Of a DNA stretch of 64,000 bases, positions 1,836-61,455 are shown piece by piece. The stretch is taken from positions 488,341 to 552,340 of the forward strand of contig MLAY01000008.1 in NCBI GenBank assembly GCA_001890965.1, in the 5' to 3' direction. Below the pieces are notes generated by a model. It ran no database searches, was not told the origin of the DNA, and saw only the letters and a list, made by a program, of their open reading frames with translations. A program made the translations under genes and the position numbers. Source of the DNA: a marine bacterium AO1-C (GTDB lineage Bacteria; Bacteroidota; Bacteroidia; Cytophagales; Microscillaceae). Numbering within the stretch: position 1 is the stretch's first letter; each line of letters opens with the position of its first letter.

Positions 1836-2795
1836 CTACACCCACAACCCGCCAGGACGTGGTCGCTTAGACAACGTTTCAGCGTATTGTTCAAGTAATA
1901 AAGTTGGAGCATCTCCATCCGAAAAATTCATAAAAGGTTTTTGGGGTTGCTCCATAGATTCAAGCCGCTCAATGCGTTCCTTGGTATCAGGATGACTTCT
2001 AAATATAGAAGGTTCCACTACTCCACGATTAGGACGCATGATTTGATGTAACCAATTACCACTATAATATTCTACTTTTTCCAAAGCCTCAGCCAAACCT
2101 AAGGGATCATTGGTTAATAAAGCCGCGTGTAAGTCAGCATTAAACTCTCTGGTACGCGATAAAGCCAGTTGTAACAATCCTACCATTCTGGGAGCAAATA
2201 TCAGCAGCAAAATGGCAATCCAAGGCACTTGCATCCTTCCCATCAGGTATAATGGTAAACTCACCAATAACAATAACTTGCCTAAATTAGCCAACAAACT
2301 GGTTAAACGACTCATAATATCGGCAAAACTCATCACTCGCATATCATTATTGCTCACATGACTTACTTCATGTGCCAATACACCCGCCAACTCTCTCAAA
2401 TTTAGCTTATTAAGTATTCCATCAGTAATTGCAATATGTGCACTTTTGGGAGACCCTACAGCAAATGCATTCATTGTTTTACTCGGAATATAGTATAGTT
2501 TAGGCACCGAAGGTAAATCTGCCCTCTTGGTTAATAAACTCATCATATGATAGAGGTTTGGGGCATTTTGAGGGTTAATTGGATGCACCTTATACATTCT
2601 CAATATCAATTTTGGGGATATTCTAGGTGCTAAAAACATGAGTAATACTCCCAAAACAGCCGACGCAATGAGTCCAATATTACCTGCTAACAAAAAACCC
2701 AGCAATGCTACAATTGCAGTCATGCTGGCAAAAAGAATGATGGTATGTAGTTGGTTACGAAATTTATGTTTCTTAATGACTTCAGGTGCTAACAT
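1836..2795 (-). CDS. M48-family zinc metalloprotease (HtpX-like)
   Basis: HExxH motif (VLAHEVSHVSNND) between transmembrane helices, with the overall HtpX-like layout. Confidence 0.75.
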   Translation of the reverse strand: MLAPEVIKKHKFRNQLHTIILFASMTAIVALLGFLLAGNIGLIASAVLGVLLMFLAPRISPKLILRMYKVHPINPQNAPNLYHMMSLLTKRADLPSVPKLYYIPSKTMNAFAVGSPKSAHIAITDGILNKLNLRELAGVLAHEVSHVSNNDMRVMSFADIMSRLTSLLANLGKLLLLVSLPLYLMGRMQVPWIAILLLIFAPRMVGLLQLALSRTREFNADLHAALLTNDPLGLAEALEKVEYYSGNWLHQIMRPNRGVVEPSIFRSHPDTKERIERLESMEQPQKPFMNFSDGDAPTLLLEQYAETLSKRPRPGGLWV

Positions 2796-2937
2796 AGGTT
2801 CTTATATGGTTTAATGTACAACTTTTCTTAGGCTTGGTTGGTTTGAAAAAGCAGTTTACAGATCACTTTTATTAAGAATTAGTCTAAATAAAAATATTTT
2901 TGTAATTTTGTGCCGAATTCTAAAGATAAAATAAATT

Positions 2938-3429
2938 ATGGTTCCGTCCCCGGCAAAACATCAAGAAGAAGTAAAAAAAGTATTTACCGATTTTCTCGAG
3001 CAAAAGAAAATGCGCAAAACTCAAGAAAGGTTTGCCATTTTAGAAGAAATCTACAACATAGAGCACTTTGATGCTTACTCGCTATTTGTGAATATGAAAG
3101 AGAAAAACTATCGAGTAAGCAGGGCCACAGTTTATAATACTTTGGAGCTATTAATTGAATGTGGTTTGGTAAAGCGTCATCATTTTGGAGCAAACTTCTC
3201 TGTATACGAAAAGGCTTACCATTACCGCCAGCACGACCACTTGGTGTGTATGGAATGCCAAAAAATCTATGAATTTTGCGACCCCAGAATTCAAAATATT
3301 CAAGAATTGGTAGAGAGTATGTACAAATTTGATGTGGAATACCACGCATTGGTTTTTAGGGGAATTTGTCAGGCTTGTGAACAAAAGAAGCAAAACAATG
3401 CTGCCCCTCTATCAACTTCTACCAAATAG
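2938..3429 (+). CDS. Fur-family metalloregulator (Fur/Zur/PerR type)
   Basis: Winged-helix region ([17 protein letters not shown]), an HHF...H motif and a C-terminal CxxC...CxxC metal site (CMECQ...CQAC). Confidence 0.8.
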
Positions 3430-3436
3430 CATGCGC

Positions 3437-3922
3437 TTATACCTTTTCTAATTGTAACGCTTTTCTCACCAGAGCAATTTGGCCTGAATGATAAATATCA
3501 TGTTCGATAATACCATGTAGAAGTGTATAGAAGTTGTACTCCTTGCCTGGAACCAATTCGTCTAGTTGAGCATCTTCCCAACTTTCCAAAATCTCTAGAA
3601 TTACTTGTTGGTTTGCTACCAGCTCTGACAAAACACTTTGCCAACGAGCTTCTATTGGTGCCTGGGTAGGCGTCCAGTCTTCAGTAGAGTTTATTTCAAT
3701 ATCAAATGCAGCATCACCTTCTAGTTTTCTCACTACAAACTCACGCCAGCTCAAAATATGCTGAATTAACTCCCAAATAGAATGTGCATGTGGTATGGGA
3801 CGTTGGTTGGCCTGTTGATAATCTATGCCTTTTACTAAATTTAGAAGTGAGTTCCCGTGCCAGGGAGAACCATTATAGGCTATTTTGAGTGAAAAGCGAA
3901 TACGTTGAATTTCTTTGTTCAT
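3437..3922 (-). CDS. DinB/YfiT-like (DinB_2) metal-dependent protein
   Basis: About 160 aa with a His-containing helical-bundle pattern (HILSW...DIYHSGQIALVRK) typical of the DinB superfamily. Convergent with the Fur-family gene. Confidence 0.55.
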   Translation of the reverse strand: MNKEIQRIRFSLKIAYNGSPWHGNSLLNLVKGIDYQQANQRPIPHAHSIWELIQHILSWREFVVRKLEGDAAFDIEINSTEDWTPTQAPIEARWQSVLSELVANQQVILEILESWEDAQLDELVPGKEYNFYTLLHGIIEHDIYHSGQIALVRKALQLEKV

Positions 3923-4128
3923 GTGTGGGATATTAGAGATTATTAAGCACCTTTTAATTGGTATTATTCATTTTTTAATACCTTGCTTTTAAACATTACA
4001 AGCGTGTGTGAAGTTCACAAAATAACATACGAATAAGTAGTAAAATTGATTTGTTTCCACAAGGCAATTGTTCCTTACACAAATCAACCCTATAATGATA
4101 GTACCAACCCAATTTAACCAATTATAAT

Positions 4129-7486: not shown

Positions 7487-7722
7487 AAAAAATAAATATA
7501 TGCATTTTTAGCACAAAAAAATATTGCTTATCACGCTTTTACCTATACGAAAATTCCAGTTTGATAGTTTTTACAAGCATAATGCTTGGCAAAAGCATTC
7601 AGAAACTACAAAAAGATTTCCCTTACTCCCCTTGTGAGCTTTGTTTAAAAGACAATTGTAATCCAATAAAGGTGGTAGATCATACCAAAAAAAACCGTCA
7701 TAAAATTTACTAAATTTGCAGC

Positions 7723-8766
7723 ATGCAAAAGAAAACCGAGCAACAAAGAACCGAGTTAAAGGATTTAGGTGAATTTGGGTTGATTCGCCGTATTCAACAG
7801 CAATTTGCTCCCAAGCATTCAGAAAGCGTGCTAGGCATAGGAGATGATGCTGCGGTTATAGATACAGGGGGCGAAAACTACACTTTAGTATCTACTGATA
7901 TGTTGGTAGAGGGCATCCATTTTGATTTGAGCTATGTGCCTCTCAAACATTTGGGATACAAAGCAGTAGCAGTAAATGTATCTGACATTGCCGCCATGAA
8001 TGGCACACCTAAGCAGTTTACAGTAAGCCTGGGGCTCAGCAATCGCTTTCCATTAGAAGCAATAGATGAGTTATATGCAGGTATCAAGCATGCCTGTAGT
8101 AATTATAACATAGATTTGGTAGGAGGAGATACTACCTCTACTCGCGCTGGGTTGGTAATATCCATTACTGCCATAGGAGAAGTAAAAAAAGATCAAATTG
8201 TATATCGTAAGGGATGCCAAGAAAACGAATTGATCTGTGTAAGTGGCGATTTGGGGGGTGCTTATATGGGATTGCAAGTACTGGAAAGAGAAAAGCAAGT
8301 CTTTATGGCCAATCCTGATATGCAACCTGAGCTGGATGGCAAAGATTATATTGTACGTCGTCAGCTCAAGCCTGAAGCCCGCACCGACATGGTTTATGAG
8401 TTGAGAGAATTGGGCGTGGTACCTACTTCTATGATAGATATTTCGGATGGTTTGGCTTCTGAGCTAATGCATCTTTGTTCACAGTCAGAAGTTGGTGCAA
8501 TCTTATATGAAGAGCATCTACCGATTGCAAAAGTGACTTATGATACTTCGGTAGAACTTAATATTGACCCTACTACTTCGATGTTGAATGGTGGGGAAGA
8601 TTATGAATTGCTCTTTACTGTCAAGCAAGAAGACTATGATAAGATCAAGCAAAATGCCGAAATCATTGAAATAGGCTATGTATTACCCAAAGAAAAAGGA
8701 GTAGTACTAAAAACCAAAGGGGAGCAAATTGTCCCAATTACGGCTCAGGGTTGGAAACATTTTTAA
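7723..8766 (+). CDS. thiL: Thiamine-monophosphate kinase
   Basis: AIRS/PurM-like fold with ThiL N-terminal motifs (GEFGLIRRI...GIGDDAAV...TDMLVEGIHF...AVAVNVSDIAAMNG). Confidence 0.8.
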   Translation: MQKKTEQQRTELKDLGEFGLIRRIQQQFAPKHSESVLGIGDDAAVIDTGGENYTLVSTDMLVEGIHFDLSYVPLKHLGYKAVAVNVSDIAAMNGTPKQFTVSLGLSNRFPLEAIDELYAGIKHACSNYNIDLVGGDTTSTRAGLVISITAIGEVKKDQIVYRKGCQENELICVSGDLGGAYMGLQVLEREKQVFMANPDMQPELDGKDYIVRRQLKPEARTDMVYELRELGVVPTSMIDISDGLASELMHLCSQSEVGAILYEEHLPIAKVTYDTSVELNIDPTTSMLNGGEDYELLFTVKQEDYDKIKQNAEIIEIGYVLPKEKGVVLKTKGEQIVPITAQGWKHF

Positions 8767-8865
8767 TATTAATTAAATATTAACTTAATGTAACCTGGGT
8801 ATTAAATAGGCGTAAAACATTATGAGAATCTATGTAGCATTCTCATTTCATTAAAAGTTTTAATA

Positions 8866-8903
8866 GGCCAGACTAGAGTTTTTAACACTAGCCTGGCTTT
8901 TTT
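8866..8903. terminator. Hairpin plus T-run between convergent genes
   Basis: ggccagactag-(loop)-ctagcctggc followed by ttttttg. A second perfect 8-bp hairpin, atgagaat-(9 nt)-attctcat, lies at 8822-8846. Confidence 0.5.
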
Positions 8904-8930
8904 GTATTCATAAGTCCGTTATTCATTCCT

Positions 8931-9863
8931 TTATTTCACTTTTTTAGCATATCGCTTTAGTTGTTTCTTGCCAATTTTATGAAACTGACGAAACTTGATA
9001 CCATTCAAGCCAGCAATACTAAAAGCTCTAGGGGCTACATACAAGTATATCTTGCCATCCTTGGTACTTGAAATAAACTGTATATGCATAGCGCCTCTAC
9101 CAGATTCTATGCTTGCTATATGGATAAAAGCATATTGGTCACTTCTGGTTTTTAGTGCTTCATCAATCATAGGAGCATCGGCAAGTTTATAAGGAAAAGG
9201 ATAATAATCCTTGATTTTGGCGATATCCAGCTTTTTAGAGAGTAATTCCTTATCTATCAATAGTGTTTTATTTTTTAGTTCAGGTCCATTCTTTGGCGCT
9301 TGTCTGCGATAAAAAGTGGCCAAGCTTCTATGCTTAGGATTCTCTACTAAATAATTCAATAGATACTGTAGTTGCATCAATCCATAAATGGTATTTCTTT
9401 CTAAAGAGTAATTGGCAGAAAGGTTCGTTTTTATCAATGATTTTCTACCATTTAGGGTAATCATCAAAGTAGCAATGGTATTGGCCACATAAGGATCTCT
9501 TGTATACTTGCTACGCATGAGTTTGCTTCTTTCATTGTAGAGCGGATTACGGGTTTTTCTGATTGCCCATTCGGTAAACACACTGTAAGTCAATAAAGCG
9601 TACTTTGCTTTATCCTTTTTCATCATCCCCTTCACCTTCGCTGCAGGTACATATTCTATGCTTTCATTAAAAGTCCAGTATTTTTTGACCAATTGCTGAA
9701 ACATCTCACTGTTTTTCTTACCCTTTCCTTTGACTATAGGGATTAATAAAACTCTCCTCTTAATGTCCAATGCCTCCTTGCGTGAAGTATTAGCTGATTG
9801 CCCGTAAGCAAAGCTGCTCAAAAAGATAAGTAGCACTGGCACACTAAATTTTAATTTGATCAT
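8931..9863 (-). CDS. Hypothetical secreted protein (signal peptide), no recognised domain
   Basis: The tracked ORF begins at a TTG. The ATG at 9863 gives MIKLKFSVPVLLIFLSSFAYGQ, a signal peptide. The gene is preceded by regulatory element copy A. Confidence 0.5.
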   Translation of the reverse strand: MIKLKFSVPVLLIFLSSFAYGQSANTSRKEALDIKRRVLLIPIVKGKGKKNSEMFQQLVKKYWTFNESIEYVPAAKVKGMMKKDKAKYALLTYSVFTEWAIRKTRNPLYNERSKLMRSKYTRDPYVANTIATLMITLNGRKSLIKTNLSANYSLERNTIYGLMQLQYLLNYLVENPKHRSLATFYRRQAPKNGPELKNKTLLIDKELLSKKLDIAKIKDYYPFPYKLADAPMIDEALKTRSDQYAFIHIASIESGRGAMHIQFISSTKDGKIYLYVAPRAFSIAGLNGIKFRQFHKIGKKQLKRYAKKVK

Positions 9864-9973
9864 GATTGTCTTGAATAAATTATTTGAAATTCTCAAAGTA
9901 TCATTACAGATTTCAATAAATTATACCTGTAATAACAGATTATTTGATAGTAAAGAAAAGGGAATATGTTGAA

Positions 9974-10050
9974 AGGGCGTTGGACATATTGTGCAAATAC
10001 TTGGGCATATCATTCACCCAACATAAGTCACTCATAATCAAATACTTGCC
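9974..10050 (-). promoter_or_regulatory. Conserved ~77-bp element, copy A, with two TTGG(A/G)CATAT direct repeats 21 bp apart
   Basis: Aligns at about 80% identity with copy B (10839-10914). Half-sites sit at 9980-9989 and 10001-10010. On the minus strand it lies about 110 bp upstream of the 8931..9863 gene. Confidence 0.5.
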
Positions 10051-10257
10051 AATAATAAGTAGGTAAACAGGCAGCAAATTTTAAAAAAGCATTGCTCAGT
10101 TTGATCTATGACTATACAAGGTAACAGCAATGCTTTTTTTTATCTATGAATTAATTAATAGGGAAATCATTTTTATTGAAATACTATCATTGACCACTTA
10201 TTTATGACTTCCCTTATTTTGATAATCGTTGACCACAAACTTTCCTATTGGATAGGA

Positions 10258-10464
10258 TTAAAGATTTTGGCGATCACTTCCACCACTACAACCACAGCCG
10301 CCACCAGAGCTACTTGACCCACTCGTTTTTCCTGTGTTAGTGGGATTGATTTTGGCCTTCTTTTTTTGACTTGGAGAACCATCTCGCTCAGTCTCACCAC
10401 CTTTTATGTTTGATTGTTGTTGGTGGGTCAGTTGTTGCATTCTAAAGTTGCTGAAGCTTTTCAT
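10258..10464 (-). CDS. GG-leader precursor peptide (Bacteroidetes GG-motif natural-product/bacteriocin precursor type), Gly/Ser/Cys-rich core
   Basis: Leader MKSFSNFRMQQLTHQQQSNIKGG ends in a double glycine. The core ends in a GSSSSGGGCGCSGGS tract. It lies 47 nt downstream of the neighbouring GG-leader peptide. Confidence 0.55.
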   Translation of the reverse strand: MKSFSNFRMQQLTHQQQSNIKGGETERDGSPSQKKKAKINPTNTGKTSGSSSSGGGCGCSGGSDRQNL

Positions 10465-10511
10465 ATGTGTTGTGTTTAGTTAATTTAATAATGTTTGTGT
10501 CTTAAGAATCA

Positions 10512-10718
10512 CTACTTCCAGGGACCAGGATAGATTTCGTGTCCACAAGTAGCTCTGCATCTTCTGAGTCCTTCTTTGTCATCTCCCCAGTATTTTTCGC
10601 ATTCTCCTGCTGGCTTCAATTTATCAGGACAACGTACAAGAGATTTTCCTCCCTGGATTGTTTGCAACTCTTTTGTAGAAATTTTGTACTTACCAAACTT
10701 TGCTTTAAGCATGCTCAT
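10512..10718 (-). CDS. GG-leader precursor peptide with a 4-Cys core
   Basis: Leader MSMLKAKFGKYKISTKELQTIQGG, then a core containing four Cys (RCPDK...GECEKYW...RCRATCGH). Preceded by regulatory element copy B. Confidence 0.55.
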   Translation of the reverse strand: MSMLKAKFGKYKISTKELQTIQGGKSLVRCPDKLKPAGECEKYWGDDKEGLRRCRATCGHEIYPGPWK

Positions 10719-10838
10719 AATACATATTATTTAAAAGGTTCAATAGTATCAAATAACTCCTGAATCATAGTGTCAGTCACATAGTTATTTGGTTTGTTTT
10801 GTGATTTTGTGTTGCAAATGAAAGGAAAAAAAGACGAG

Positions 10839-10914
10839 AGGGCTTGGACATATCTTGCAAAAATATTGGACATATCATTCAAGCAAAATAAGCCACTGAT
10901 AATCAAACAATTAC
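10839..10914 (-). promoter_or_regulatory. Conserved ~77-bp element, copy B, with two TTGGACATAT direct repeats about 22 bp apart and embedded TTTG / TATTTTTG promoter-like boxes
   Basis: Half-sites at 10844-10853 and 10866-10875. On the minus strand the sequence reads TTTG-n18-TATTTTTG between and around the half-sites. It sits about 120 bp upstream of the peptide gene start at 10718. Confidence 0.5.
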
Positions 10915-10948
10915 AGCATGTTAAGAGTAAAATAAAGTGCAGAATTGG

Positions 10949-11941
10949 CTAAATACTTCTAATAGAACTCGGAGTTATTCCGTATTTTTTCTTGAAAGCA
11001 TTGGTAAAATGTCCTGGGTGACTGTAGCCTAACAGGTGAGCAATTTCGGAAGTAGGTTTGTCAGTATAGCGAAGTAGGTTACGCGCTTTTTCCATTTTGA
11101 AGTCTAGCAAAAATCCAAAAATGGTATTATTGAATACCTCTTTGAAGCCTTTCTTCAACTTAAAGTCGTTGGTGCCTACCATTTTGGCCAATTCATAAAT
11201 TGTAGGAGGATTATCGGCACGAGCTACCAGGATTTCTTTAGCCTCATGAATTTTATTCAAATCCTTGGTATTATTTATATACGTCTTGGCTTTGATACTA
11301 GGAGAGCTTTGGGCCTGTTCTACCTGCAATGCCAATAATTCCAGCACTTTGGCTTCAATAAAAATACGTTGTAGGTTTCTATCCAGCGGTTGGTTGAGCA
11401 ATTCGTGGATAATCATACGCATTTCGGGGGTAATAGGAAGGTTGGTATCTGCCAACATCACAGGTTCCTGTCGAACCACTTTTTCATAAAAATCGGCTAA
11501 TAAGTACGGATAACGAGCTACCAGTTGTTCGAAGTATTCACGAGTAAAACTCACTTCAAAGTTTTGATAAGCTTGTTTCCCCCGAAAGTTAAAAACCCCA
11601 CTTTTGCTAGGGGTATAACATAAAGTTTGCTGATTTTCTTGAATGATCACTTCGTCTCCAAAGTCATCCATCTTACCAGAAACAGTTCCCTTTAGGTGAA
11701 AACTCATTTCTACCAAATCTTCGTCGGCCTGACCACGAATGCGCAAATCATCATTGAAAGTAAAGCCTCCTCCCAACACGAAAATACCATTTAGGTTGTA
11801 TTGCTTAAAGTTGCCGTTACCAAAACCAAAATCTAAAAAACCGCCATCTCGATATACTTTTGGATCAGAAGCTGGGACAATGGGCAAATCAAACTCGTGT
11901 AGAGTTTCAGGGACTTGATCAACATGCAAACTAAACTTCAT
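10949..11941 (-). CDS. AraC-family transcriptional regulator with an N-terminal sensor domain
   Basis: C-terminal AraC HTH pair (YELAKMVGTNDFKLKKGFKEVF...IAHLLGYSHPGHFTNAFKKKYGITP). Confidence 0.8.
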   Translation of the reverse strand: MKFSLHVDQVPETLHEFDLPIVPASDPKVYRDGGFLDFGFGNGNFKQYNLNGIFVLGGGFTFNDDLRIRGQADEDLVEMSFHLKGTVSGKMDDFGDEVIIQENQQTLCYTPSKSGVFNFRGKQAYQNFEVSFTREYFEQLVARYPYLLADFYEKVVRQEPVMLADTNLPITPEMRMIIHELLNQPLDRNLQRIFIEAKVLELLALQVEQAQSSPSIKAKTYINNTKDLNKIHEAKEILVARADNPPTIYELAKMVGTNDFKLKKGFKEVFNNTIFGFLLDFKMEKARNLLRYTDKPTSEIAHLLGYSHPGHFTNAFKKKYGITPSSIRSI

Positions 11942-12089
11942 AGATATTGGGGCTCTTTTTTAGACAAAAATCCTGATGGCGTAAGTAGTACTCCGTTTAA
12001 CGTAAACAAAACTGGAGAGTTTGTGATAGCTTTGCAAACATACAATTAGGTTTTCATCAACAATTATTCCCATACAACTGAACACTGAC

Positions 12090-12815
12090 ATGCGACACAG
12101 TTCTGATCGATTGACTGCCAAACAGTCACCTCTTTTGTTCCAAAAAGGCATTCAAACTCGCCAAACTACTAATAACTTCTTGCCACCTTATAATACTACG
12201 TTAGCTGCTCAATTGGGCGTTTCACTCGATTATAGCGTATTAGACAAAATCGTTCTCGATTTTATCACTCAAAATCCTTCGGGTACCATCATCAACCTGG
12301 GCGCTGGTCTGGATAACCGTTTTTTCCGCCTGGATAATGGCCAAATCCAGTGGTTTGATATAGATGTTCCTGAAACTATTGAACTAAGACGTACTTTTTT
12401 TGAAGCCAACGACCGTTACCAATTGATTCCTACTAATATTTTTGGAAGGAATTTGCTCAAATACCTCCCTCCTACTTCTAATAGCTTGATTATCATAGAA
12501 GGTCTGGCGATGTATTACTCAGAAAGCAAAATAAAAACCCTGGTACAGAATATTTGCCGTCACTATAGCTCGTGTGAAATCATTTTGGAGGTTATTCATC
12601 CAGCAGTAATGGATAGTGTGGCCTATGCTACCCCAAACTTACCCTTAAAATGGGCAGTAAGTAATTTAAATCAGGTAGAAAAGTGGCATAAAAAGTTATT
12701 TCTAGCTCAGGAATTTCATCATTTATCAAGCGATTCAACTTCTAAGAGTCAATATTTCCATAATATTACTCAACCTCACGAAATGATTAAACTAGGCCAC
12801 TTTAAAGTAGGATAG
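12090..12815 (+). CDS. Class I SAM-dependent methyltransferase (LCM/TcmP-like O-methyltransferase family)
   Basis: IINLGAGLDNRFFRL...WFDIDVPETIELRRTF...IIIEGLAMYY pattern characteristic of the leucine carboxyl methyltransferase/TcmP family. Confidence 0.65.
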   Translation: MRHSSDRLTAKQSPLLFQKGIQTRQTTNNFLPPYNTTLAAQLGVSLDYSVLDKIVLDFITQNPSGTIINLGAGLDNRFFRLDNGQIQWFDIDVPETIELRRTFFEANDRYQLIPTNIFGRNLLKYLPPTSNSLIIIEGLAMYYSESKIKTLVQNICRHYSSCEIILEVIHPAVMDSVAYATPNLPLKWAVSNLNQVEKWHKKLFLAQEFHHLSSDSTSKSQYFHNITQPHEMIKLGHFKVG

Positions 12816-50849: not shown

Positions 50850-51111
50850 TTAAGATGTGTAAAGAAGTATTGATCAATCACTTATACTTAACCCTTTTAA
50901 ATAATAGTCTAACTAACCCATAACTTTTTCTCAATACAATTTGCATAGAATACCTGCTGGGAGTACCTGGTAGGTATTTTTGTTTATTGAATCATACCTA
51001 CAAATTTTAACTTTTCTCCTTCCTTACTTAGGGTCTCTCCTGCTTTCGTTGTCTAGAATTATAAGAAGCAGTATTGGCTTCAAAATCAAGCTTTTTAAAA
51101 ACCCAAAACAT

Positions 51112-51669
51112 ATGAGAAATCTTATTTTTTTATTCGTACTTGTGTGTACGACTAGTGTGATTCAAGCTCAAAACGAAAATATTTCTAAAGGTACCTGGAT
51201 GGCGGGAGGAAGCGTATCATTTTCTAACACGACCCAAACACTGGGCAACAACAGCACAACTAATACTAATTTTACCCTCGAACCTCAAGCAGGTTATTTT
51301 TTCTCTTCCCGATTTGCACTCACATTTGGAACCAGTTTTTCTACCAGCACTTTTGCAGCAGGACGTTCTAGTGGATTTTCTATACAACCTGGAGCTCGTT
51401 TTTATTTGCATAAAGGCTTTTTTGCCTCTGCACAAGTAGGAATTGGCCATGTAAAAACCTCCATTACCGATCCAGCGAGTAGCGATTATATCAATATCAT
51501 ATCGTTCGAGGGAGGAACTGGCTATAGCATATTTTTGAATAAGTATGTGGCCATTGAACCCGCCTTGGTATATCGTGTAACCAATTTTGACCAAAACGGA
51601 ACCAGTTCAAGTTTTACTGGCTCCAACCGAGAGTTTAATTTTAGTGTTGGCTTTAGAATATTTTTGTAA
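51112..51669 (+). CDS. Small outer-membrane beta-barrel protein, paralog 1 of 3
   Basis: Signal peptide and KGTWMAGGSVSFSN. Alternating beta-strand pattern with a C-terminal FNFSVGFRIFL. Start placed at the ATG at 51112. Confidence 0.6.
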   Translation: MRNLIFLFVLVCTTSVIQAQNENISKGTWMAGGSVSFSNTTQTLGNNSTTNTNFTLEPQAGYFFSSRFALTFGTSFSTSTFAAGRSSGFSIQPGARFYLHKGFFASAQVGIGHVKTSITDPASSDYINIISFEGGTGYSIFLNKYVAIEPALVYRVTNFDQNGTSSSFTGSNREFNFSVGFRIFL

Positions 51670-51983
51670 TACCTAACCAGAGACTGTCTTATAATTTTTT
51701 TTGTACTGAATATTACTTTGGTTTTCTCTATCAGGAAAAGATAAACTTCTCTCATCTCGCAGGCTTACTCAATCCTCCCCAAGTGTTGTTGCCCCTTTAG
51801 GAGGGAGTTGCTTCTGATTATGTAGAACTAAAAATCTTTCTAGAATAATATTTGGTAGTTGATTATTTATGAGACAGCCTCTTCATCCTTCCCTTAACAA
51901 TCCTCTTATCTTCCCTCCTTTTGGCTTCCACTTCCAATTCACTAATTTTGCCCGCAGTATCAAACGATTAAATTTTAATTATA

Positions 51984-52577
51984 ATGAAACAGGTTTTTGT
52001 ATTAGTGATCATCGCTTTTATTAGTATTCAGGCAAAAGCTCAAGATCAAAATCGTTTTAGTAAAGGGCAATGGTTTGTAGGTGGTGATTTTTCTTTTAGC
52101 AATAATTCTAGAAATCTGGGAGGATCAACAGGTAAATTTAAAACAAGTAACTTAAGTTTTTCGGGGGAAGTAGGGTACTTTGTCATACCCAAGCTAGCGG
52201 TTACGCTTACTCCCATATACGCTCGAAACAGTTCCGAAAATACGTCACAATTCAACCCTAATCGTAATGTTTACCGTGAATATAGCCTCAATGCTGGAAT
52301 AAGAGGTTATGTAATTCAAAACTTATTTCTATATGGTAGTATAGGGTGGGGAAAAGTAAAAGAGGTAATTGAAATACCAAATCTTCTTCCAATAACAATT
52401 GAAAGCACCCCAAATGTGTTTGTTTACAGTGCAGGGGTAGGATATAGTCTTTTTTTAATAAAAAAAGTATCACTTGAACCACGGGTATTTTATCGTTTTC
52501 GTCGAATTGGGGATGTTGATGCAGGAGCTGACAATAACTCATTTAATTTTAGTGTTGGCTTTAGAATATTTTTGTAA
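51984..52577 (+). CDS. Small outer-membrane beta-barrel protein, paralog 2 of 3
   Basis: KGQWFVGGDFSFSNN near the N-terminus and FNFSVGFRIFL at the C-terminus. Confidence 0.6.
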   Translation: MKQVFVLVIIAFISIQAKAQDQNRFSKGQWFVGGDFSFSNNSRNLGGSTGKFKTSNLSFSGEVGYFVIPKLAVTLTPIYARNSSENTSQFNPNRNVYREYSLNAGIRGYVIQNLFLYGSIGWGKVKEVIEIPNLLPITIESTPNVFVYSAGVGYSLFLIKKVSLEPRVFYRFRRIGDVDAGADNNSFNFSVGFRIFL

Positions 52578-52849
52578 CGCTTAATAAGTGAGGAAGATCC
52601 AAATCTTTCTCACTCATCCCACCTTTCGTGTCTTCGTTCTATTTAAGTTTCTCAGTCTTACCCTCTTCGTTTAGTCACAACCAACTCTACATTGGTCTAA
52701 AAAGACCGATATCTCCTATAATATGCCCAATTTCGCCTACTAAATCACCTCACTTTTTGAGATATTGCATTATGTAACTTGTCCTAAAATCATTGCTTTA
52801 GGTCATTACAATCATTCAAACACTTCAATACTCATTAAATATCTTTCTC

Positions 52850-53380
52850 ATGAAAAAAATCATTTTACCATTCATTTTATTATTAATTAGCTTTGGGATT
52901 CAGGCTCAAGATCAAACCACCAAAATCCGCAAAGGCACCTGGCTAATCGGCGGTGATCTTTCGTTTAGCACTTTTACTTTCCAGTATCCTTCTAATATGA
53001 GTAGTAGTCCCAATACCAGTACGGTGCTCACCCTAAATCCCCAGGCAGGTTATTTTATTGGTAATCGTATTGCTGTTGGTTTGGGTTTAAACTATTCTAC
53101 CAACCAAACTTTTGATACTTATGGTATACAAACTGGTGCTCGCTTTTATTTGATCAAACATCTATTTGCCGAAGGAATTATTGGGTTTGGAAAAAACGTT
53201 GCGCGAGAAGGTGATTTTCAGTCCGATACGTTTAGTTGGATAACAACGGTGGGCTACTCCGCTTTCTTAAACGAACATGTGGCCCTGGAGCCTCGCATTA
53301 TTTATCAGGAAAATCACTACTCATCTAATATCATAGGGAGAGGATTAACTATAGGAGTAGGGTTGAGGGTATTTTTATAA
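52850..53380 (+). CDS. Small outer-membrane beta-barrel protein, paralog 3 of 3
   Basis: KGTWLIGGDLSFST near the N-terminus and LTIGVGLRVFL at the C-terminus. Confidence 0.6.
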   Translation: MKKIILPFILLLISFGIQAQDQTTKIRKGTWLIGGDLSFSTFTFQYPSNMSSSPNTSTVLTLNPQAGYFIGNRIAVGLGLNYSTNQTFDTYGIQTGARFYLIKHLFAEGIIGFGKNVAREGDFQSDTFSWITTVGYSAFLNEHVALEPRIIYQENHYSSNIIGRGLTIGVGLRVFL

Positions 53381-56284: not shown

Positions 56285-57589
56285 TTAATAAAGTTCATCA
56301 TTAAGCTGAAGCTTCAACTTTTGGGCTGAAGCCCAAGCCTTGATCACCTTCATCTCTTTTTCGGAGGGCATGCGGTTATAGGCCCCTCGAGCTTGCACCA
56401 CTCGATGATCATCTAGTACCTCAATAGTGATGATCTTGGTAGTGGGGCGAAACAAGTCTTGCTTTACCAGACTCCAGATTGAGCAATACCCCGAAGTACA
56501 TCGGTTGAGATAAGAAGACACACAATGACTCATCTGTCGTCCTTCTTCAAACAATGACTGACTATCAGTGATTTGTCGAATCGTATACCATTGCAATGAG
56601 CGTCGTTTGGCAAAATAATGGAACTCGTCCATGGTAGAATAGTTCCAATGAACCACCGCCTGACCATATTGCTCCATCACTCGCTGGTACTGCTGAGCAT
56701 CGTTTAGCCAACGGTGCCATTCTCCAATCATGCGCATCAATGAACCATAAGTTCGCCCCTTTAGGCTAAACTCAGTAGTGCGGGTTTTCTGGCGTACCAA
56801 CTCCCCTGCTTCGTTGAGTTGCAAAGGGGTTTCGTATCGCTGGGCTACGGTAAAGTCTACCAATGGCCCCACCTGGTGATTCTCCAAAAAATCCGGGTGG
56901 TTGATCAAAAATTGAATCAACTCTAGCCAAAACGCTGTATCCTGGGTAACTTGATCCAACTTGGCTACCATTAGCGCTTTAAACAACGCCATACTACCTC
57001 CCAAAGCGATGATTTGCCCATAATACAATGCCTGATAAACACTGTATTCCACAGGAGACTCCAAAAAATGATGCGCCATTTTTTTGGTTAAGCTCACAGG
57101 TAAATCCTTGGCCTTACGGATGTTATGTCCGTTGACCAAATGTAGGTACCATTCTATGGTTTGCTTATTCCCGGTTTTCCAGGCTTGATTCATAAACATA
57201 GGTACCGAATAATGGCCAAACAGGAACTGTAGTAAATCTTTCAACAAAAAATTAGACGCCTCTCGCCAACTTGCCCCTCGGGGGAGTTCTATAGTAGGTT
57301 CCCAGTCTTTAGGATCACGAATCCAGTATTTGGCATAACGATATGCATTCGACAAAGCAGTACCTCGATAATAAATCTGGTAGGCATTGTCTCGAGCAAT
57401 GTCTTTGACAAACTGGTAAAACTCTTTTTGATCGCAACGACGGCGATGCCACCAGGTAGTTTGCAGCAATTCGGCAATGTTTTTAAAATCATTGGGACGA
57501 TTGCTGATGGCTACTTTACGATGGCTCAAATCATACAAAATGGTCTCAAGTTGAGCCCGGGTATAAGCACGTTGTTTTTGTTTTGTCAT
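56285..57589 (-). CDS. Uncharacterised protein, member 1 of a four-gene tandem paralog family (conserved W.RDPK.W.P, FM.QAW, YGQ..A.GGS and M.HCV..Y...C..G..SIW blocks)
   Basis: Aligns along its length with 57953..59491, 59754..61019 and 61456..62805. Shared blocks: WIRDPKDWEP, FMNQAWKTGNKQTIEWYLHLVNGHNIRKAKDLP, YGQIIALGGS and QMSHCVSSYLNRCTSGYCSIWSL. Confidence 0.6.
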   Translation of the reverse strand: MTKQKQRAYTRAQLETILYDLSHRKVAISNRPNDFKNIAELLQTTWWHRRRCDQKEFYQFVKDIARDNAYQIYYRGTALSNAYRYAKYWIRDPKDWEPTIELPRGASWREASNFLLKDLLQFLFGHYSVPMFMNQAWKTGNKQTIEWYLHLVNGHNIRKAKDLPVSLTKKMAHHFLESPVEYSVYQALYYGQIIALGGSMALFKALMVAKLDQVTQDTAFWLELIQFLINHPDFLENHQVGPLVDFTVAQRYETPLQLNEAGELVRQKTRTTEFSLKGRTYGSLMRMIGEWHRWLNDAQQYQRVMEQYGQAVVHWNYSTMDEFHYFAKRRSLQWYTIRQITDSQSLFEEGRQMSHCVSSYLNRCTSGYCSIWSLVKQDLFRPTTKIITIEVLDDHRVVQARGAYNRMPSEKEMKVIKAWASAQKLKLQLNDELY

Positions 57590-57609
57590 GATTATAATCC
57601 AGCTTTGAT

Positions 57610-57650
57610 CCGCCAGATTATAACCATCTTATGAGGTCAGAATCTGGCGG
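57610..57650 (-). promoter_or_regulatory. Perfect 10-bp inverted repeat (ccgccagatt...aatctggcgg, 21-nt spacer) 20-60 nt upstream of the start codon of paralog 1
   Basis: Seen directly in the sequence. Also a GATTATAA(T/C)C direct repeat at 57590-57600 and 57616-57626. Confidence 0.35.
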
Positions 57651-57952
57651 GGTAAAACATTGATGCTTGGGTAATTTGCATGAGTAGTTCATTCAAATTA
57701 CCATTGGCGCCTTCACCTTCAGCATCAGGTTTTGTTTCTTGTTTTTGTTTTCTTTTGCTCAATTTTATTTTTCGTTTTAATTACTGATAGTCAATCTTTT
57801 AGCATTTATTTGATTATCATATTTCAAACTTACTCACTCACTACGCAAGCTTTTTGCGCAGCAAATAATTTTTCTAAAAATTTTCATCTCAGCAAAGGAT
57901 TCTAAACTATCGCCTTGCGCTCATTTTTCACTTTTCATTTTTAGTTTTTCAC

Positions 57953-59491
57953 TTAAGAATAGTCAATAGACAAATCCAGGTTTTCTTGCTTACTCCAATG
58001 TTGAATAATTGATAATTCGCTGTCAGTAGGTTCGCGATTTTGCTTACCTTTTACTGTCCATATTTTGTCCTCATTGCCCAGCTCTATAGTCACGCATTTT
58101 TCTTCTCGACCATCATAAAAAATCCGACTCATGGCCCAAATAGAACTAGTTCCTTCCTGGCATTTATAAGCGTAACCTCCCACACAATGCGACATTACTT
58201 TGCCTTCCAACCATAGCTCATAGTTGTTGATCAGCTGAATGATGCGATAACGTGGCAAAAACGGCAAAGGCTGGTATTCAAAATCCTGCTTTTTACGTGT
58301 TTCCCAGCTTGTCAAATTAGCCTTGAACTCATCGCCCAAAATATTCAATGCATCGTGCCAATCATTAACTACCTTCATCAATGACTTTGGAGTACGCTTT
58401 TGAAGCGTAAAGTCAGGTTCCAAAGCAGTTTCTTTTCTAATACCACCTTCTCGGGTGTACACTCGCTGCCCATAGTATTTGCGCGCATTGATAAAGTTGA
58501 CAATTCGTGGCAACTCTCCCTGATCTACCAATTCGGGATAACGCATCAGGAAATGCACCAACTGAGCAAAAAAATCAGGATCGCGTTGGATCCGTTTTAC
58601 CGAACATTTATATAGTTCGTCGCTCAAAGCTACACTGCCTCCCAACCCTCGAACTTGCCCATATAACAAAGCCTGATTGATGGCGTAATAGCTAGGAGCC
58701 TTGGTAAAATAATGCGTCATTTTAGTGGTCAGTTTGGCTGGAACCGACTTTACCCGACGAAGGTTGTGTCCTTTGGCCAGAAAAATGAACCACAAAATAT
58801 GCTGATGATCATTTGTATCCCAGGCCTTATGCATAAAGGCTGGTACAGAATATTTTACAAACAAATGATTAATCAACTCTTTTATTAATTGAGGATGTAC
58901 TTTGCCCCAACTTACTTCTTGAGCTGCATCCCAATGAATGCTTGGTTTCCAATCTTCAGGATTACGTAGCCAATGCCTCCGATATTTGAACAACACATAC
59001 AAAATATTGTGTTGGTATAAAACTGGCACATTGCCAGGACGCAGTATATCTTTTAGAAAATAGAAAAACTGTTGTTTTTGATGTCCAGGAAGCCATTGGG
59101 TAGTTTGTAACATTTTACCAATATTCTGAAACATCGGCGAAAGCTCATGATACTTTACTTCATTTAAATACAATGCATGTAAAATATCGATTGCCCGAGA
59201 GTACCCTTCGTAAGACAATTGGCGACGCTGTCCTCTTTTTTTGCCTTGCTTCCGAAGTTGCCCTTTCTTTTCCGCGTTGGTCTTCCCTACCGTTTTTCTA
59301 TATGCTCTTTGTTTATTTCTTCTCGAATTCCTTGAGTAATTACGACTAGCCATGATTACCAAATTGGGAGCAAGCCAGGATGACTCACTCCATTGAAGAG
59401 GTAATGATGTTGAATAAAGTATTCGACGTATCTGTATGATCATTGAATCACCCAATATGCAGATATGGCCGAAAACCGCTCCCTTACCCAA
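57953..59491 (-). CDS. Uncharacterised protein, member 2 of the four-gene paralog family (longer, highly basic N-terminus)
   Basis: WLRNPEDWKPS, FMHKAWDTNDHQHILWFIFLAKGHNLRRVKSVP, YGQVRGLGGS and VMSHCVGGYAYKCQEGTSSIWAM. The N-terminal ~100 aa are Arg/Lys-rich. Confidence 0.6.
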   Translation of the reverse strand: MGKGAVFGHICILGDSMIIQIRRILYSTSLPLQWSESSWLAPNLVIMASRNYSRNSRRNKQRAYRKTVGKTNAEKKGQLRKQGKKRGQRRQLSYEGYSRAIDILHALYLNEVKYHELSPMFQNIGKMLQTTQWLPGHQKQQFFYFLKDILRPGNVPVLYQHNILYVLFKYRRHWLRNPEDWKPSIHWDAAQEVSWGKVHPQLIKELINHLFVKYSVPAFMHKAWDTNDHQHILWFIFLAKGHNLRRVKSVPAKLTTKMTHYFTKAPSYYAINQALLYGQVRGLGGSVALSDELYKCSVKRIQRDPDFFAQLVHFLMRYPELVDQGELPRIVNFINARKYYGQRVYTREGGIRKETALEPDFTLQKRTPKSLMKVVNDWHDALNILGDEFKANLTSWETRKKQDFEYQPLPFLPRYRIIQLINNYELWLEGKVMSHCVGGYAYKCQEGTSSIWAMSRIFYDGREEKCVTIELGNEDKIWTVKGKQNREPTDSELSIIQHWSKQENLDLSIDYS

Positions 59492-59723
59492 TTTAGCTTA
59501 CCTCTTTGGCTCCATCAGGAAGGGAGGAGATTGGTATCTTTTCGCCTGAAACACATACCATCTTCTGAGCCTTGAACAATTTGGTTTAGCATTCTTTTAT
59601 TGAATTATAAATTGTTAATGATGAATTATTAATTAGTGTGTATTTGTAATGCGATGTTAAAAACCTACCATCTTTGGTTATGATTTCGTGTCTCTAAAAT
59701 CGCGTTGCAAACACTCGTATAAA

Positions 59724-59750
59724 GTAGCACGCATTTACATGCGTGCTAGT
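59724..59750 (-). terminator. Hairpin immediately after the stop codon of paralog 3 (tagcacgcat-ttac-atgcgtgcta)
   Basis: Perfect 10-bp stem with a 4-nt loop starting 4 nt below the stop codon. On the minus strand it is followed by a U-rich stretch (uacuuuauac). Confidence 0.5.
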
Positions 59751-59753
59751 CAT

Positions 59754-61019
59754 TTATTCTAGTTCGCAGTAATTGGCTACTTTTAGCCTTTCACGCTTTG
59801 CCCATTGACGAACGATTTTGCTTTCGTCTACTCCAGGCATACTGTTCGCCTTACCCCGTACCTGTACAATGGTTTCGCCCTCATGCAACTGAATTGTCAA
59901 TAATGGCTTTACACCGTTACAGGTGGTAGCAGTCAGCGACCAAATAGATGTATCGCCCGATTCACAACGATGCAAGTAAGAACCTACACAGTGTCGCATT
60001 ACTTCTCCCTCACGCTCAATCGCATAGTTGTTGGTCAACTGCATAATGCGATAAATCGGTGATTTTTGATCGGCTTTATTGGCTCGATACAAAAAGTTAC
60101 GCACCTTGTTGGGAGTCCAGGTAACCAATTTTCCCGCACTTATTCCATAGCGATTACTATTTTCCCAATCTTTGACCTCACGCATTAACGACTTGGCAGT
60201 TTTACCTTTTAGGCTAACTTTTCGAGTCACTTGTGGCCCTAGTTGCCCATAGGCATCTATTTGTACCTTCACCAACCTGCGATCGTTCAAATAATTCACA
60301 ATGCGATCTACTTGTTGGTCTTCTTCCAGTTCAGGATTATTGATGAACAATCTCAATAGTGTCAACCACATTTCCTGATCCTGACACAAGTAACTTGTGG
60401 AAAGCAAGCTCAGCTTTTTTACCAGCGATTTTCGCCCTCCCATGGCCATTACTTGCCCATATATTAAGGCATCTTCAATGCGGTACTCAGTCGGAGCTTG
60501 CAAGAATTCATGCGCCATCTTTTTTGTCAAATGTGCCTGCATTCCTGGAGCTGTTCTTATGTTTTGGCCTTGTGCCAAGTGAATAAACCAACTGATATGT
60601 AGTGGGTCTATATCTTGCCACGCCTGATACATAAATTGTGGTACTTCGTAGCGAACAAATAAGTAGTCTATCAGATCTTGTTGCAAAATTTCCCCAGCAT
60701 TACCAATGCTTTTTGGCATCCAGCCTTTAGGAGACTTTAGCCAATGCTTGGTTTGACCATATATGGCCAACAAAGCCTCCCCCTGGTAAAATACCCGATA
60801 GTAATGACGACGAGCTATGGCACTTAAAAATTCATAAAACCCACGTTTGTCGCCTGGACGATCTTTCCATTCGCCTCGCATCAGCTTTCCTACTTTGTAG
60901 TAAGGAGAAAAGCTATCTAACCGATTCAATTTCAGCTTCTTGCGGTAAAGCGCCTCTAATGTTTTTCGAGGGCGACTCAAATCCGCTTTTTTAATTTGAG
61001 AACCCATAATTCTTACCAT
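59754..61019 (-). CDS. Uncharacterised protein, member 3 of the four-gene paralog family
   Basis: WLKSPKGWMPK, FMYQAWQDIDPLHISWFIHLAQGQNIRTAPGM, YGQVMAMGGR and VMRHCVGSYLHRCESGDTSIWSL. Confidence 0.6.
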   Translation of the reverse strand: MVRIMGSQIKKADLSRPRKTLEALYRKKLKLNRLDSFSPYYKVGKLMRGEWKDRPGDKRGFYEFLSAIARRHYYRVFYQGEALLAIYGQTKHWLKSPKGWMPKSIGNAGEILQQDLIDYLFVRYEVPQFMYQAWQDIDPLHISWFIHLAQGQNIRTAPGMQAHLTKKMAHEFLQAPTEYRIEDALIYGQVMAMGGRKSLVKKLSLLSTSYLCQDQEMWLTLLRLFINNPELEEDQQVDRIVNYLNDRRLVKVQIDAYGQLGPQVTRKVSLKGKTAKSLMREVKDWENSNRYGISAGKLVTWTPNKVRNFLYRANKADQKSPIYRIMQLTNNYAIEREGEVMRHCVGSYLHRCESGDTSIWSLTATTCNGVKPLLTIQLHEGETIVQVRGKANSMPGVDESKIVRQWAKRERLKVANYCELE

Positions 61020-61455
61020 TTTGAATGCGGCAAGGAACCTTTCAGGGTAAATGGTCAGGGGTTAATGATGAATTTCCTGAACAGTATTTATCCAATCAAA
61101 GCCATTGCTTGGTAAGTATCTGGGATACTCAAACCTCGCCGCGATTAAGAAGTATTGTTATTCATTTTGAAATTTATGTTGTACCCCTCAGGGGGTATGC
61201 CTGCATCACCTCGTGAGTCAGACTTGTTTTGTTTAAATAATTTGATGTTGGTCATGTATATTTTTGATTTTAAGTGCTTTCAATAAATATGGCTAAATGG
61301 TTTCATTGTTCTATGGTCTCGTGATGCATTGCAGTACCATATCACTACTTCATAATAAAATATGAATTATCTTGAACTACTCATTAGCCATATCTAAAGC
61401 ACTGATTAATAACAATTTTAAACTTTATCGTAAACTCTGAACTACTGACTACCTA

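Follow-up and report, generated by a model that had tools for sequence, protein, structure and literature searches.

The DNA stretch analysed here, referred to as the window, comprises 64 kb from marine bacterium AO1-C, a member of the Microscillaceae, and all positions given below are those of the window. Its minus strand carries, in this order, a gene for an AraC-family regulator, one copy (copy B) of a duplicated DNA element, two genes for small secreted GG-leader (double-glycine-leader) peptides (peptide 1 and peptide 2), a hairpin, a second copy (copy A) of the element and a gene for a secreted protein of 310 amino acids (aa). The AraC gene, both GG-peptide genes and the 310-aa gene are all encoded on the minus strand, and thiL, on the plus strand, converges on the 310-aa gene. 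The element, hereafter the module, is the subject of this analysis. The features of the locus are as follows; scores in bits refer to a 19-nucleotide (nt) weight matrix and soxbox positions to a comparison with the MarA/SoxS/Rob box, both described further below.

10949..11941, minus strand: AraC-family regulator gene (HTH_18, E=3e-19), directly upstream of copy B; candidate binding factor
10839..10914, minus strand: copy B of the element, long form, including an upstream extension of ~30 nt, TTGATTATCAGTGGCTTATTTTG (from alignment and repeat finder)
10865..10883, minus strand: distal 19-nt unit of copy B, CTTGAATGATATGTCCAAT, with its core ATATGTCCAA at 10866-10875 (23.8 bits)
10843..10861, minus strand: proximal 19-nt unit of copy B, TTTGCAAGATATGTCCAAG, with its core at 10844-10853 (28.8 bits; 10/14 soxbox positions)
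10815..10822, minus strand: candidate -7 box of copy B, TTCATTTG, in which TTTG starts 25 nt past the proximal core
10512..10718, minus strand: GG-leader peptide 1, leader ending in ...LQTIQGG and core with four Cys; first gene after copy B
10258..10464, minus strand: GG-leader peptide 2, leader ending in ...SNIKGG, with a Gly/Ser/Cys-rich tail; 47 nt past peptide 1
10083..10133, minus strand: terminator hairpin 3' of peptide 2, GCATTGCT ... AGCAATGC and then a run of T (read from sequence)
9974..10050, minus strand: copy A of the element, long form (from alignment and repeat finder)
10000..10018, minus strand: distal unit of copy A, GGTGAATGATATGCCCAAG, with its core at 10001-10010 (21.5 bits)
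9979..9997, minus strand: proximal unit of copy A, TTTGCACAATATGTCCAAC, with its core at 9980-9989 (22.8 bits; 12/14 soxbox positions)
9951..9958, minus strand: candidate -7 box of copy A, TTTCTTTA, with TTTA instead of TTTG, 25 nt past the proximal core
8931..9863, minus strand: secreted protein of 310 aa and of unknown function, with a signal peptide; downstream of copy A

A sequence-only reading of this DNA had described duplicated elements of ~77 bp at 9974-10050 and 10839-10914, each with two TTGGRCATAT half-sites 21-22 bp apart, and both descriptions hold. The minus-strand stretches of A and B align (MAFFT) with a mean column identity of 82% and one 1-nt indel, and the repeat finder lists the pair as family D6 (10001-10047 vs 10866-10912, 83%, ungapped). 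Exact matches to TTGGRCATAT are located on the plus strand at 9980, 10001, 10844 and 10866; read on the minus strand as ATATG(T/C)CCAA, the repeats start 21 nt apart in copy A and 22 nt apart in copy B. The pattern ATATGNCCAA occurs six times in the window against 0.9 expected, a number reached in none of 100 shuffles, and four of these six occurrences fall inside copies A and B. Based on a 19-nt weight matrix built from the aligned sites, the window's own four included, these four units score 21.5-28.8 bits, and the next best match in the window, at 16.0 bits, lies in coding sequence. Copy B is located 120 nt upstream of the first GG-peptide gene (10512-10718) and copy A 110 nt upstream of the 310-aa gene (8931-9863).

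The same module is found in relatives. Our comparison set comprises 11 distinct copies, i.e. A and B plus nine more from Microscillaceae metagenomes and one Splendidivirga genome, giving 12 aligned rows (loci from the searches carry L numbers). Ten of the 11 copies are upstream of and co-oriented with a gene: four precede GG-peptide genes (copy B, L001, L047 and L053b), four precede genes of the secreted-protein family (copy A, L046, L053a and L057) and two precede other genes (L048 and L034). Therefore, one co-regulated gene set consisting of the GG peptides and the secreted-protein family is well supported by the arrangement of these sequences. Co-regulation had already been proposed from the window's two copies, and it gains from the relatives, in which the module also precedes other GG-peptide and secreted-protein genes, always co-oriented; the search for further copies there turned up none at random locations and no mobile repeat with unconserved half-sites.

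A strict pattern scan of metagenomes returned four contigs of ERZ1740067 (coverage 5.7-6.8x), each with a module copy. L045 is the AraC locus, L046 has the module upstream of a secreted-protein homologue (63% identity), L047 has it upstream of a new GG-leader, Cys-rich peptide (MKILKEKFSAYKLKNNQLNEIKGG...), and L048 has three cores at 21-nt spacing, ~580 nt upstream of the gene for a 1319-aa protein. The latter protein (7708-11667) has no Pfam match, and its C-terminal part looks pyroglutamyl-peptidase-like by eye. L053/L054, reached via the peptide homologue P0122, carry a module, a secreted-protein homologue, a second module, a 76-aa GG peptide, a 64-aa GG peptide and thiL, with no AraC gene. 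On the opposite strand of L053, upstream of the module-bearing secreted-protein gene, there are an extracytoplasmic function (ECF) sigma factor gene (3633-4085) and a 524-aa OMP_b-brl_2-like gene (2099-3673); this is a lineage whose AraC gene has moved to another place. L057, from a sample shared with L053, combines a full module with a 45% paralogue of the secreted protein, and sample SRR24820228 holds three module copies. In Splendidivirga corallicola (L034), two perfect cores with TTTTTG between them and TTTG 26 nt downstream sit between a hybrid sensor kinase with an AraC-type helix-turn-helix (HTH) and a 70-aa open reading frame (ORF), the latter followed by a decarboxylase-like gene.

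The pattern ATATGNCCAA-N11/12-ATATGTCCAA matched 32 loci on contigs of other genomes, among which only L012 and L034 are relevant; nearly all of the 32 are unrelated 21-22-nt tandem arrays, coding repeats or chance matches (Bacteroides, Prevotella, Tannerellaceae and others). Long 21-22-nt tandem arrays with ATATGTCCAA-like or ATATATCCAA-like units, unrelated to the module, occur in gut Bacteroidales (L009, L027 and L030 in a Tannerellaceae metagenome-assembled genome; L014, L016, L019, L031, L033, L036 and L039 in an uncultured bacterium and Bacteroides spp.), and matched because of the construction of the direct-repeat pattern. The metagenome matches L049-L052 are also unrelated, being a palindromic structure and ORF-free, eukaryotic-looking DNA.

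Seven orthologues of the AraC gene (92-66% identity) were placed on contigs. L001 (AraC 92%) retains part of copy B, peptide 2 and, where the gene downstream of copy A was lost, a decayed remnant of that copy. In L003/L012/L045 the AraC identity is 84%; L012 is the same contig as L003, and the comparison of L003 with L045 is uninformative on constraint because the two are 97% identical. Between AraC and thiL, nothing is found in L041 (88%) and L044 (68%), and other genes are found in L005 and L007. Copy B and the L003/L045 copy share 87.5% identity over 64 nt, and the ~30-nt extension upstream of the distal unit (TTGATTATSAGTGRYTTATKTTG) is common only to copies A, B and L003/L045. Considering that copy A is closer to copy B than to its positional equivalents before the orthologous gene (L046 and L053a), the sequences suggest a recent duplication or gene conversion of A and B within this lineage.

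Anchored on the proximal core, the consensus reads ..TGa..g ATATGnCCAA g(n)TTTTTGCa.g ATATGtCCAA g - 24 nt - TTTG - caa. Its information content is highest at both cores, at the intervening TTTTTGCA, which is kept in 12/12 instances, and at the downstream TTTG. Each unit reads as an 18-19-bp bipartite (T)TG-N3-G-ATATGnCCAA(G), with (T)TG at -7 to -5 and G at -1 of its core, and the units repeat with a period of 21 nt in 11/12 aligned rows and of 22 nt in copy B. Since the starts are 21-22 nt, i.e. about two helical turns, apart, both units lie on the same face of the DNA. The proximal unit is strongly bipartite, with a first box (box A) and a second box (box B) in the form TTTGCAnG-ATATGTCCAAG (TTTGCA ... 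ATGTCCAA); the distal unit is weaker, with only TG in the same register in 10/12 rows. The A and B boxes resemble each other, which is compatible with four equivalent repeats.

Downstream of the repeats, TTTG is located exactly 25 nt past the proximal core in 9/12 aligned rows, which are not all independent. The other three rows have TTTA at 25 nt (copy A), TTTA at 24 nt (L048) and TTTG at 26 nt (L034), and the stretch between proximal core and TTTG is unconserved. With a TTTG background of 0.011 per intergenic position, the binomial P for the 25-nt spacing is ~1e-11. This is no more than a rough bound, as related instances are counted and the spacing first came to notice in these very sequences. 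The sigma-A -7 box of flavobacteria, TAnnTTTG, extends from -12 to -5 (PMC9723704), and TAnnTTTG is enriched in the intergenic DNA of the window (1.18 vs 0.70 per kb per strand). We infer that the conserved TTTG forms the 3' half of a -7 box of the Bacteroidota type, a weak one whose TA is mostly missing (TTyMTTTG); the units would then lie at about -65/-55 (distal) and -43/-34 (proximal), with no -33 TTTG. The module would thus share with the canonical Bacteroidota sigma-A promoter (-33 TTTG / -7 TAnnTTTG) a TTTG at a fixed position (PMC9723704), but differ from it in mostly lacking the -7 TA and in having the proximal repeat in place of the -33 TTTG. From this TTTG to the ATG, a leader of 40-105 nt remains.

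With the TTTG 25 nt downstream of the proximal repeat, the repeats would be positioned upstream of the core promoter and not within it. This departs from the sequence-only reading, which had interleaved a core promoter with the half-sites: an upstream TTTG occurs only in the long-form copies, and the conserved TTTG is the one downstream. The TTTG-n18-TATTTTTG that it had pointed out in copy B is indeed present, but as a core promoter it fits only copy B and the L003 lineage.

Our preferred explanation, to which we assign a probability of roughly 0.6, is that each copy of the module acts as a self-contained, activator-dependent sigma-A promoter and that all copies belong to one regulon. Two tandem monomers of the AraC/XylS family, or one dimer, would occupy the two units. 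In such a weak core promoter the -33 region would be taken over by the bound protein, i.e. the activator would replace -33 recognition and recruit RNA polymerase (class II activation). In the window, the module would drive two transcription units, namely peptide 1 plus peptide 2, ended by the hairpin, and the 310-aa gene, and in relatives it would drive dispersed paralogues of the peptide and secreted-protein genes.

Several points weigh against this explanation. The -7 assignment is deduced from sequence, and the -7 box may instead be the TTTTTGCA that separates the cores, considering that copy B reads TATTTTTG there, an exact TAnnTTTG. One of the 11 copies (L003/L045) is an intact two-core element followed by ~1.2 kb without a recognisable gene; this stretch (L003 6110-7240) contains no GG-peptide ORF and no relic of peptide or secreted-protein genes, and the element may be an orphan promoter or the driver of an unannotated RNA. 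In L043 and L058, the secreted-protein orthologue comes directly after AraC with at most one degenerate core and no intact module. Furthermore, the resemblance to the soxbox was found by eye in one register, and direct repeats of 10 bp spaced by 11 bp are just as characteristic of the LytTR regulators of streptococcal GG-peptide genes (PMC2766830).

As to the class of the factor, one similar known architecture is that of XylS, which binds two 15-bp direct repeats, each with a box A (TGCA) and a box B 6 bp apart, the proximal monomer helping the distal one to bind (PMC5481539). The XylS-dependent Pm promoter and the module both have two homologous direct repeats with a period of ~21 bp. A TGCA-like box A with a second box roughly a helical turn from it makes up each XylS repeat and, in the module, most clearly the proximal unit; in both systems the proximal repeat abuts the -35/-33 region of the polymerase (for the module, if TTTG is the -7 box). 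The araI1-araI2 sites of AraC are likewise tandem direct repeats, with the proximal one abutting the -35 region. In contrast to XylS and AraC sites, the module has ATGnCCAA as box B, its boxes are 7-8 nt apart and not 6, its promoter is of the Bacteroidota -33/-7 type, its binding protein is a candidate only, and its targets are GG-leader peptides and a secreted protein of unknown function instead of a catabolic operon.

The proximal units also resemble the MarA/SoxS/Rob box (AYNGCACNNWNNRYYAAAYN), with GCA and YCCAA falling on its two recognition elements. The proximal 20-mers agree with this soxbox at 8-12 of its 14 specified positions (background P of at least 10 matches 0.0076, in a register chosen by eye), which is a statistical resemblance and no membership test. 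Mar/Sox boxes, however, are single sites bound by a monomer, whereas the module has tandem units and the candidate protein a cupin dimerisation domain. The TGCA-like box and the YCCAA box, 7 nt apart, point to a protein with two HTH motifs per monomer and, since the unit is both XylS-like and soxbox-like, a tandem AraC/XylS-family activator is favoured. While we infer an activator from the form of the repeats, the assignment of the factor to the AraC/XylS class would be about an even bet.

A more specific version of the activator-promoter explanation holds that the AraC protein encoded at 10949-11941 itself binds the repeats and activates both promoters, making AraC, the two peptides and the secreted protein one local unit. 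The gene is located directly upstream of the module in the window, L001 and L003/L045, and directly upstream of the secreted-protein gene in L043 and L058. Its product has a classic cupin (dimerisation) domain and a two-HTH architecture, as in AraC, RhaR, ToxT and ExsA, which would suit an AraC/XylS-like site unit, and the range of the AraC orthologue group matches that of the module and that of the secreted-protein family, all three being restricted to one narrow clade. In Splendidivirga, too, the motif follows a hybrid sensor kinase ending in an AraC-type HTH, but this HTH shares only 27% identity with the window's AraC. Nevertheless, we regard the neighbouring gene as a doubtful candidate. 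The AraC-module adjacencies probably reflect one ancestral AraC-thiL arrangement inherited by descent. No module accompanies the orthologues at 88%, 76%, 68% and 66% identity. In sample SRR24489651, one contig carries the AraC gene (L005) and another the cassette with the module (L054), and regulator genes are missing from the surroundings of the dispersed module copies. More distant AraC proteins, paralogues at 37% identity (Rapidithrix and Flexithrix), sit in unrelated contexts, with no peptide genes or repeats nearby.

The constant partner of this AraC gene is instead a divergent LCM-type methyltransferase gene, present at every locus for which upstream sequence was recovered (L042 and L043 are uninformative in this respect because both start at the AraC gene). 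The AraC/methyltransferase intergenic region holds its own near-invariant tandem repeat, which is unrelated to the module in sequence and has the same promoter geometry:

11966-12008 (with 12027-12042), toward the methyltransferase gene: near-invariant block of 42 nt with two 21-nt-spaced repeats TCC-N4-T-N2-CGTAA (register set by eye)

This block is near-invariant in eight orthologous loci, although their flanks diverge (AraC identity 66-92% in seven, L058 being the eighth). Its proximal repeat ends 21 nt before TAGCTTTG, the exact TAnnTTTG of the methyltransferase gene, just as the CCAA end of the module lies 21 nt before the 8-mer of its candidate -7 box. The palindromic TTTGCAAA (12031-12038) is a TAnnTTTG box whichever way it is read. 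Such an intergenic block is what a divergently transcribed regulator of the AraC type would normally bind, and the 42-nt block is probably the operator of this AraC. The weight matrix of the module reaches at best 5.9 bits in any AraC/methyltransferase intergenic region and nothing above -5 bits in the window's own. The AraC regulon envisaged by the sequence-only reading is thus not borne out by co-occurrence, given the orthologues without an adjacent module and the lack of a similar site in this region.

Alternatively, the factor might be a response regulator encoded elsewhere, in the manner of autoinduced bacteriocin regulons in Gram-positive bacteria, and would bind the repeats as a protein either of the LytTR type or of the winged-helix OmpR/PhoB type, the latter reading four ~10.5-nt repeats T(T/G)T(G/C)CAAG. 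The geometry of the module is identical to that of the SilA site, which controls GG-leader peptide genes with two 10-bp direct repeats and an 11-bp spacer (PMC2766830). More generally, the LytTR promoters (SilA, ComE, BlpR, PlnC/D and AgrA) resemble the module in their 9-10-bp direct repeats, 11-12-bp spacer and weak core promoter, as well as in driving GG-leader peptide genes from copies dispersed as a regulon (PMC2766830). The 10-bp cores with their 11- or 12-nt spacer have the dimensions of LytTR sites, and the A-type box TTTGCAAG and the B-type box TGTCCAAG agree at 6/8 positions. Moreover, dispersed copies imply a trans-acting factor, and the same 10-mer in a different family (Splendidivirga) suggests that this factor is well conserved. 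We still consider a response regulator rather improbable. No LytTR or OmpR-type gene is present among the tested neighbours: a scan of 46 neighbouring proteins from the window and related loci revealed no LytTR regulator, no histidine kinase and no C39 peptidase ABC exporter, so that, unlike in LytTR systems, none of these genes stands beside any copy tested. The core sequence is unrelated and does not resemble the LytTR consensus, and the strongly conserved spacer with TTTTTGCA is unusual for LytTR sites and better explained by a two-HTH protein.

The module could also be the operator of a repressor, in which case a core promoter interleaved with the repeats, with its -7 box at TTTTTGCA, would be blocked for RNA polymerase by the bound protein. 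Copy B fits this well, having between its cores the exact TAnnTTTG (TATTTTTG) with a TTTG 18 nt upstream, and the complete conservation of TTTTTGCA also speaks for it. However, the TA is found in copy B only, the distance to the upstream TTG/TTTG varies between ~13 and 18 nt, short-form copies are without it, and it would be left unexplained why the downstream TTTG keeps so strictly to 25 nt although the sequence before it is not conserved. For TTTTTGCA, box A of the proximal unit is the better reading, and we judge repression by this route to be unlikely.

Returning to the activator-dependent promoter, it is tempting to speculate that it forms part of a peptide-based, self-inducing (quorum-sensing-like) circuit, in which the cupin domain of an AraC-type regulator, perhaps that of the neighbouring one, would sense an exported GG peptide or a product made with the secreted protein, and the regulator would then activate all module promoters. 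We rate such a circuit as very unlikely; if true, an AraC-type protein would play in it the part that LytTR regulators have in the bacteriocin regulons of Gram-positive bacteria.

Least probable is a nature other than that of a transcription-factor site, be it mobile repeat, structured RNA or small ORF: small ORFs do span the long-form copies (MIISGLFCLNDMSN... in copy B and MIMSGLFCVNDMTK... in L003), but the 1-nt indel puts A and B in different frames, the N of ATATGNCCAA, a variable base, would fall on the first position of a codon and the short-form copies are without an ORF, while a mobile repeat is contradicted by the lack of terminal inverted repeats, by unrelated flanks beyond ~90 nt, by the presence of only two, always promoter-proximal copies in 64 kb and by the lack of matches in plasmid or phage collections, and a structured RNA by folding z-scores of 0.03 and -0.25 for the two copies and by Rfam, in which no family reached its gathering score (whole window at the gathering threshold; 9800-12150 at E up to 1), the single match in E-value mode, tpke11 (E 0.33), being far below the cut-off.

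Regarding the genes of the cassette, the closest homologue of the AraC protein is from Microscillaceae. Peptide 1 is identical (100%) to BKI52_24840 of marine bacterium AO1-C and has one homologue only, P0122 (66%), and peptide 2 has a homologue in L001 (72% identity). All GG peptides of the window and its relatives carry ...(I/V/L)(K/Q)GG at residues 21-24, and their leaders score below the curated cut-offs of the corresponding hidden Markov models (bacteriocin_sig 15.6 vs 15.7 bits; TIGR04149 17.9 vs 25 bits). The two peptide genes are probably co-transcribed, since the 47-nt gap between them holds no element. The hairpin at 10083-10133 separates the peptide operon from copy A; it has T runs on both strands and is conserved in L001 with a compensatory base-pair change (GCATTACT/AGTAATGC), and was missed by a simple terminator scan because its loop is 29 nt long. 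The 310-aa protein is identical (100%) to BKI52_24830 and received no family assignment in profile searches. Its family (~300 aa) is clade-restricted, forming only 8 clusters among 5.8 billion.

Two repeats of a motif like AAGTGGTCAAYGAT lie 3' of peptide 2 (window ~10175-10245, minus strand), and the motif recurs many times in L003 6370-6960, in the non-coding stretch behind the L003/L045 element. Elsewhere in the window, 50980-53380 contains three tandem paralogous OMP_b-brl genes. Repeat family D5 (51634/52542, 50 nt) was rejected as a regulatory repeat, as it corresponds to the C-terminal coding end FNFSVGFRIFL of these outer-membrane beta-barrel paralogues. In the same region, a lone ATATGCCCAA (52721-52730, plus strand) is followed by TTTG after 25 nt and lies 120 nt upstream of the beta-barrel gene at 52850-53380; with neither box A nor a second core, this site is probably due to chance. 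Four tandem paralogous genes of ~420-510 aa, at ~1.7-kb spacing, occupy 56285-62805 on the minus strand and account for repeat families D1-D3.

The module is a real, previously undescribed cis-regulatory motif. In kind it would be a tandem-repeat activator site as known from textbooks, so that no concept is changed by it. We know of very few transcription-factor binding motifs defined in Cytophagales, and in the literature searched on GG-peptide regulation we found no description of how GG-leader peptide genes are regulated in Bacteroidota. The module offers a sharply defined promoter architecture, i.e. two 19-bp units at a fixed spacing to the candidate -7 box, in 11 natural variants. GG-leader peptide genes and a secreted-protein family of unknown function are the members of the small gene set that it marks out within one clade, and this link of orphan peptide genes with a clade-restricted secreted protein suggests a shared role, e.g. 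in antagonism, immunity or signalling. The module is a clean starting point for studying how GG peptides are regulated in Bacteroidota and is usable as a probe for identifying the regulator.

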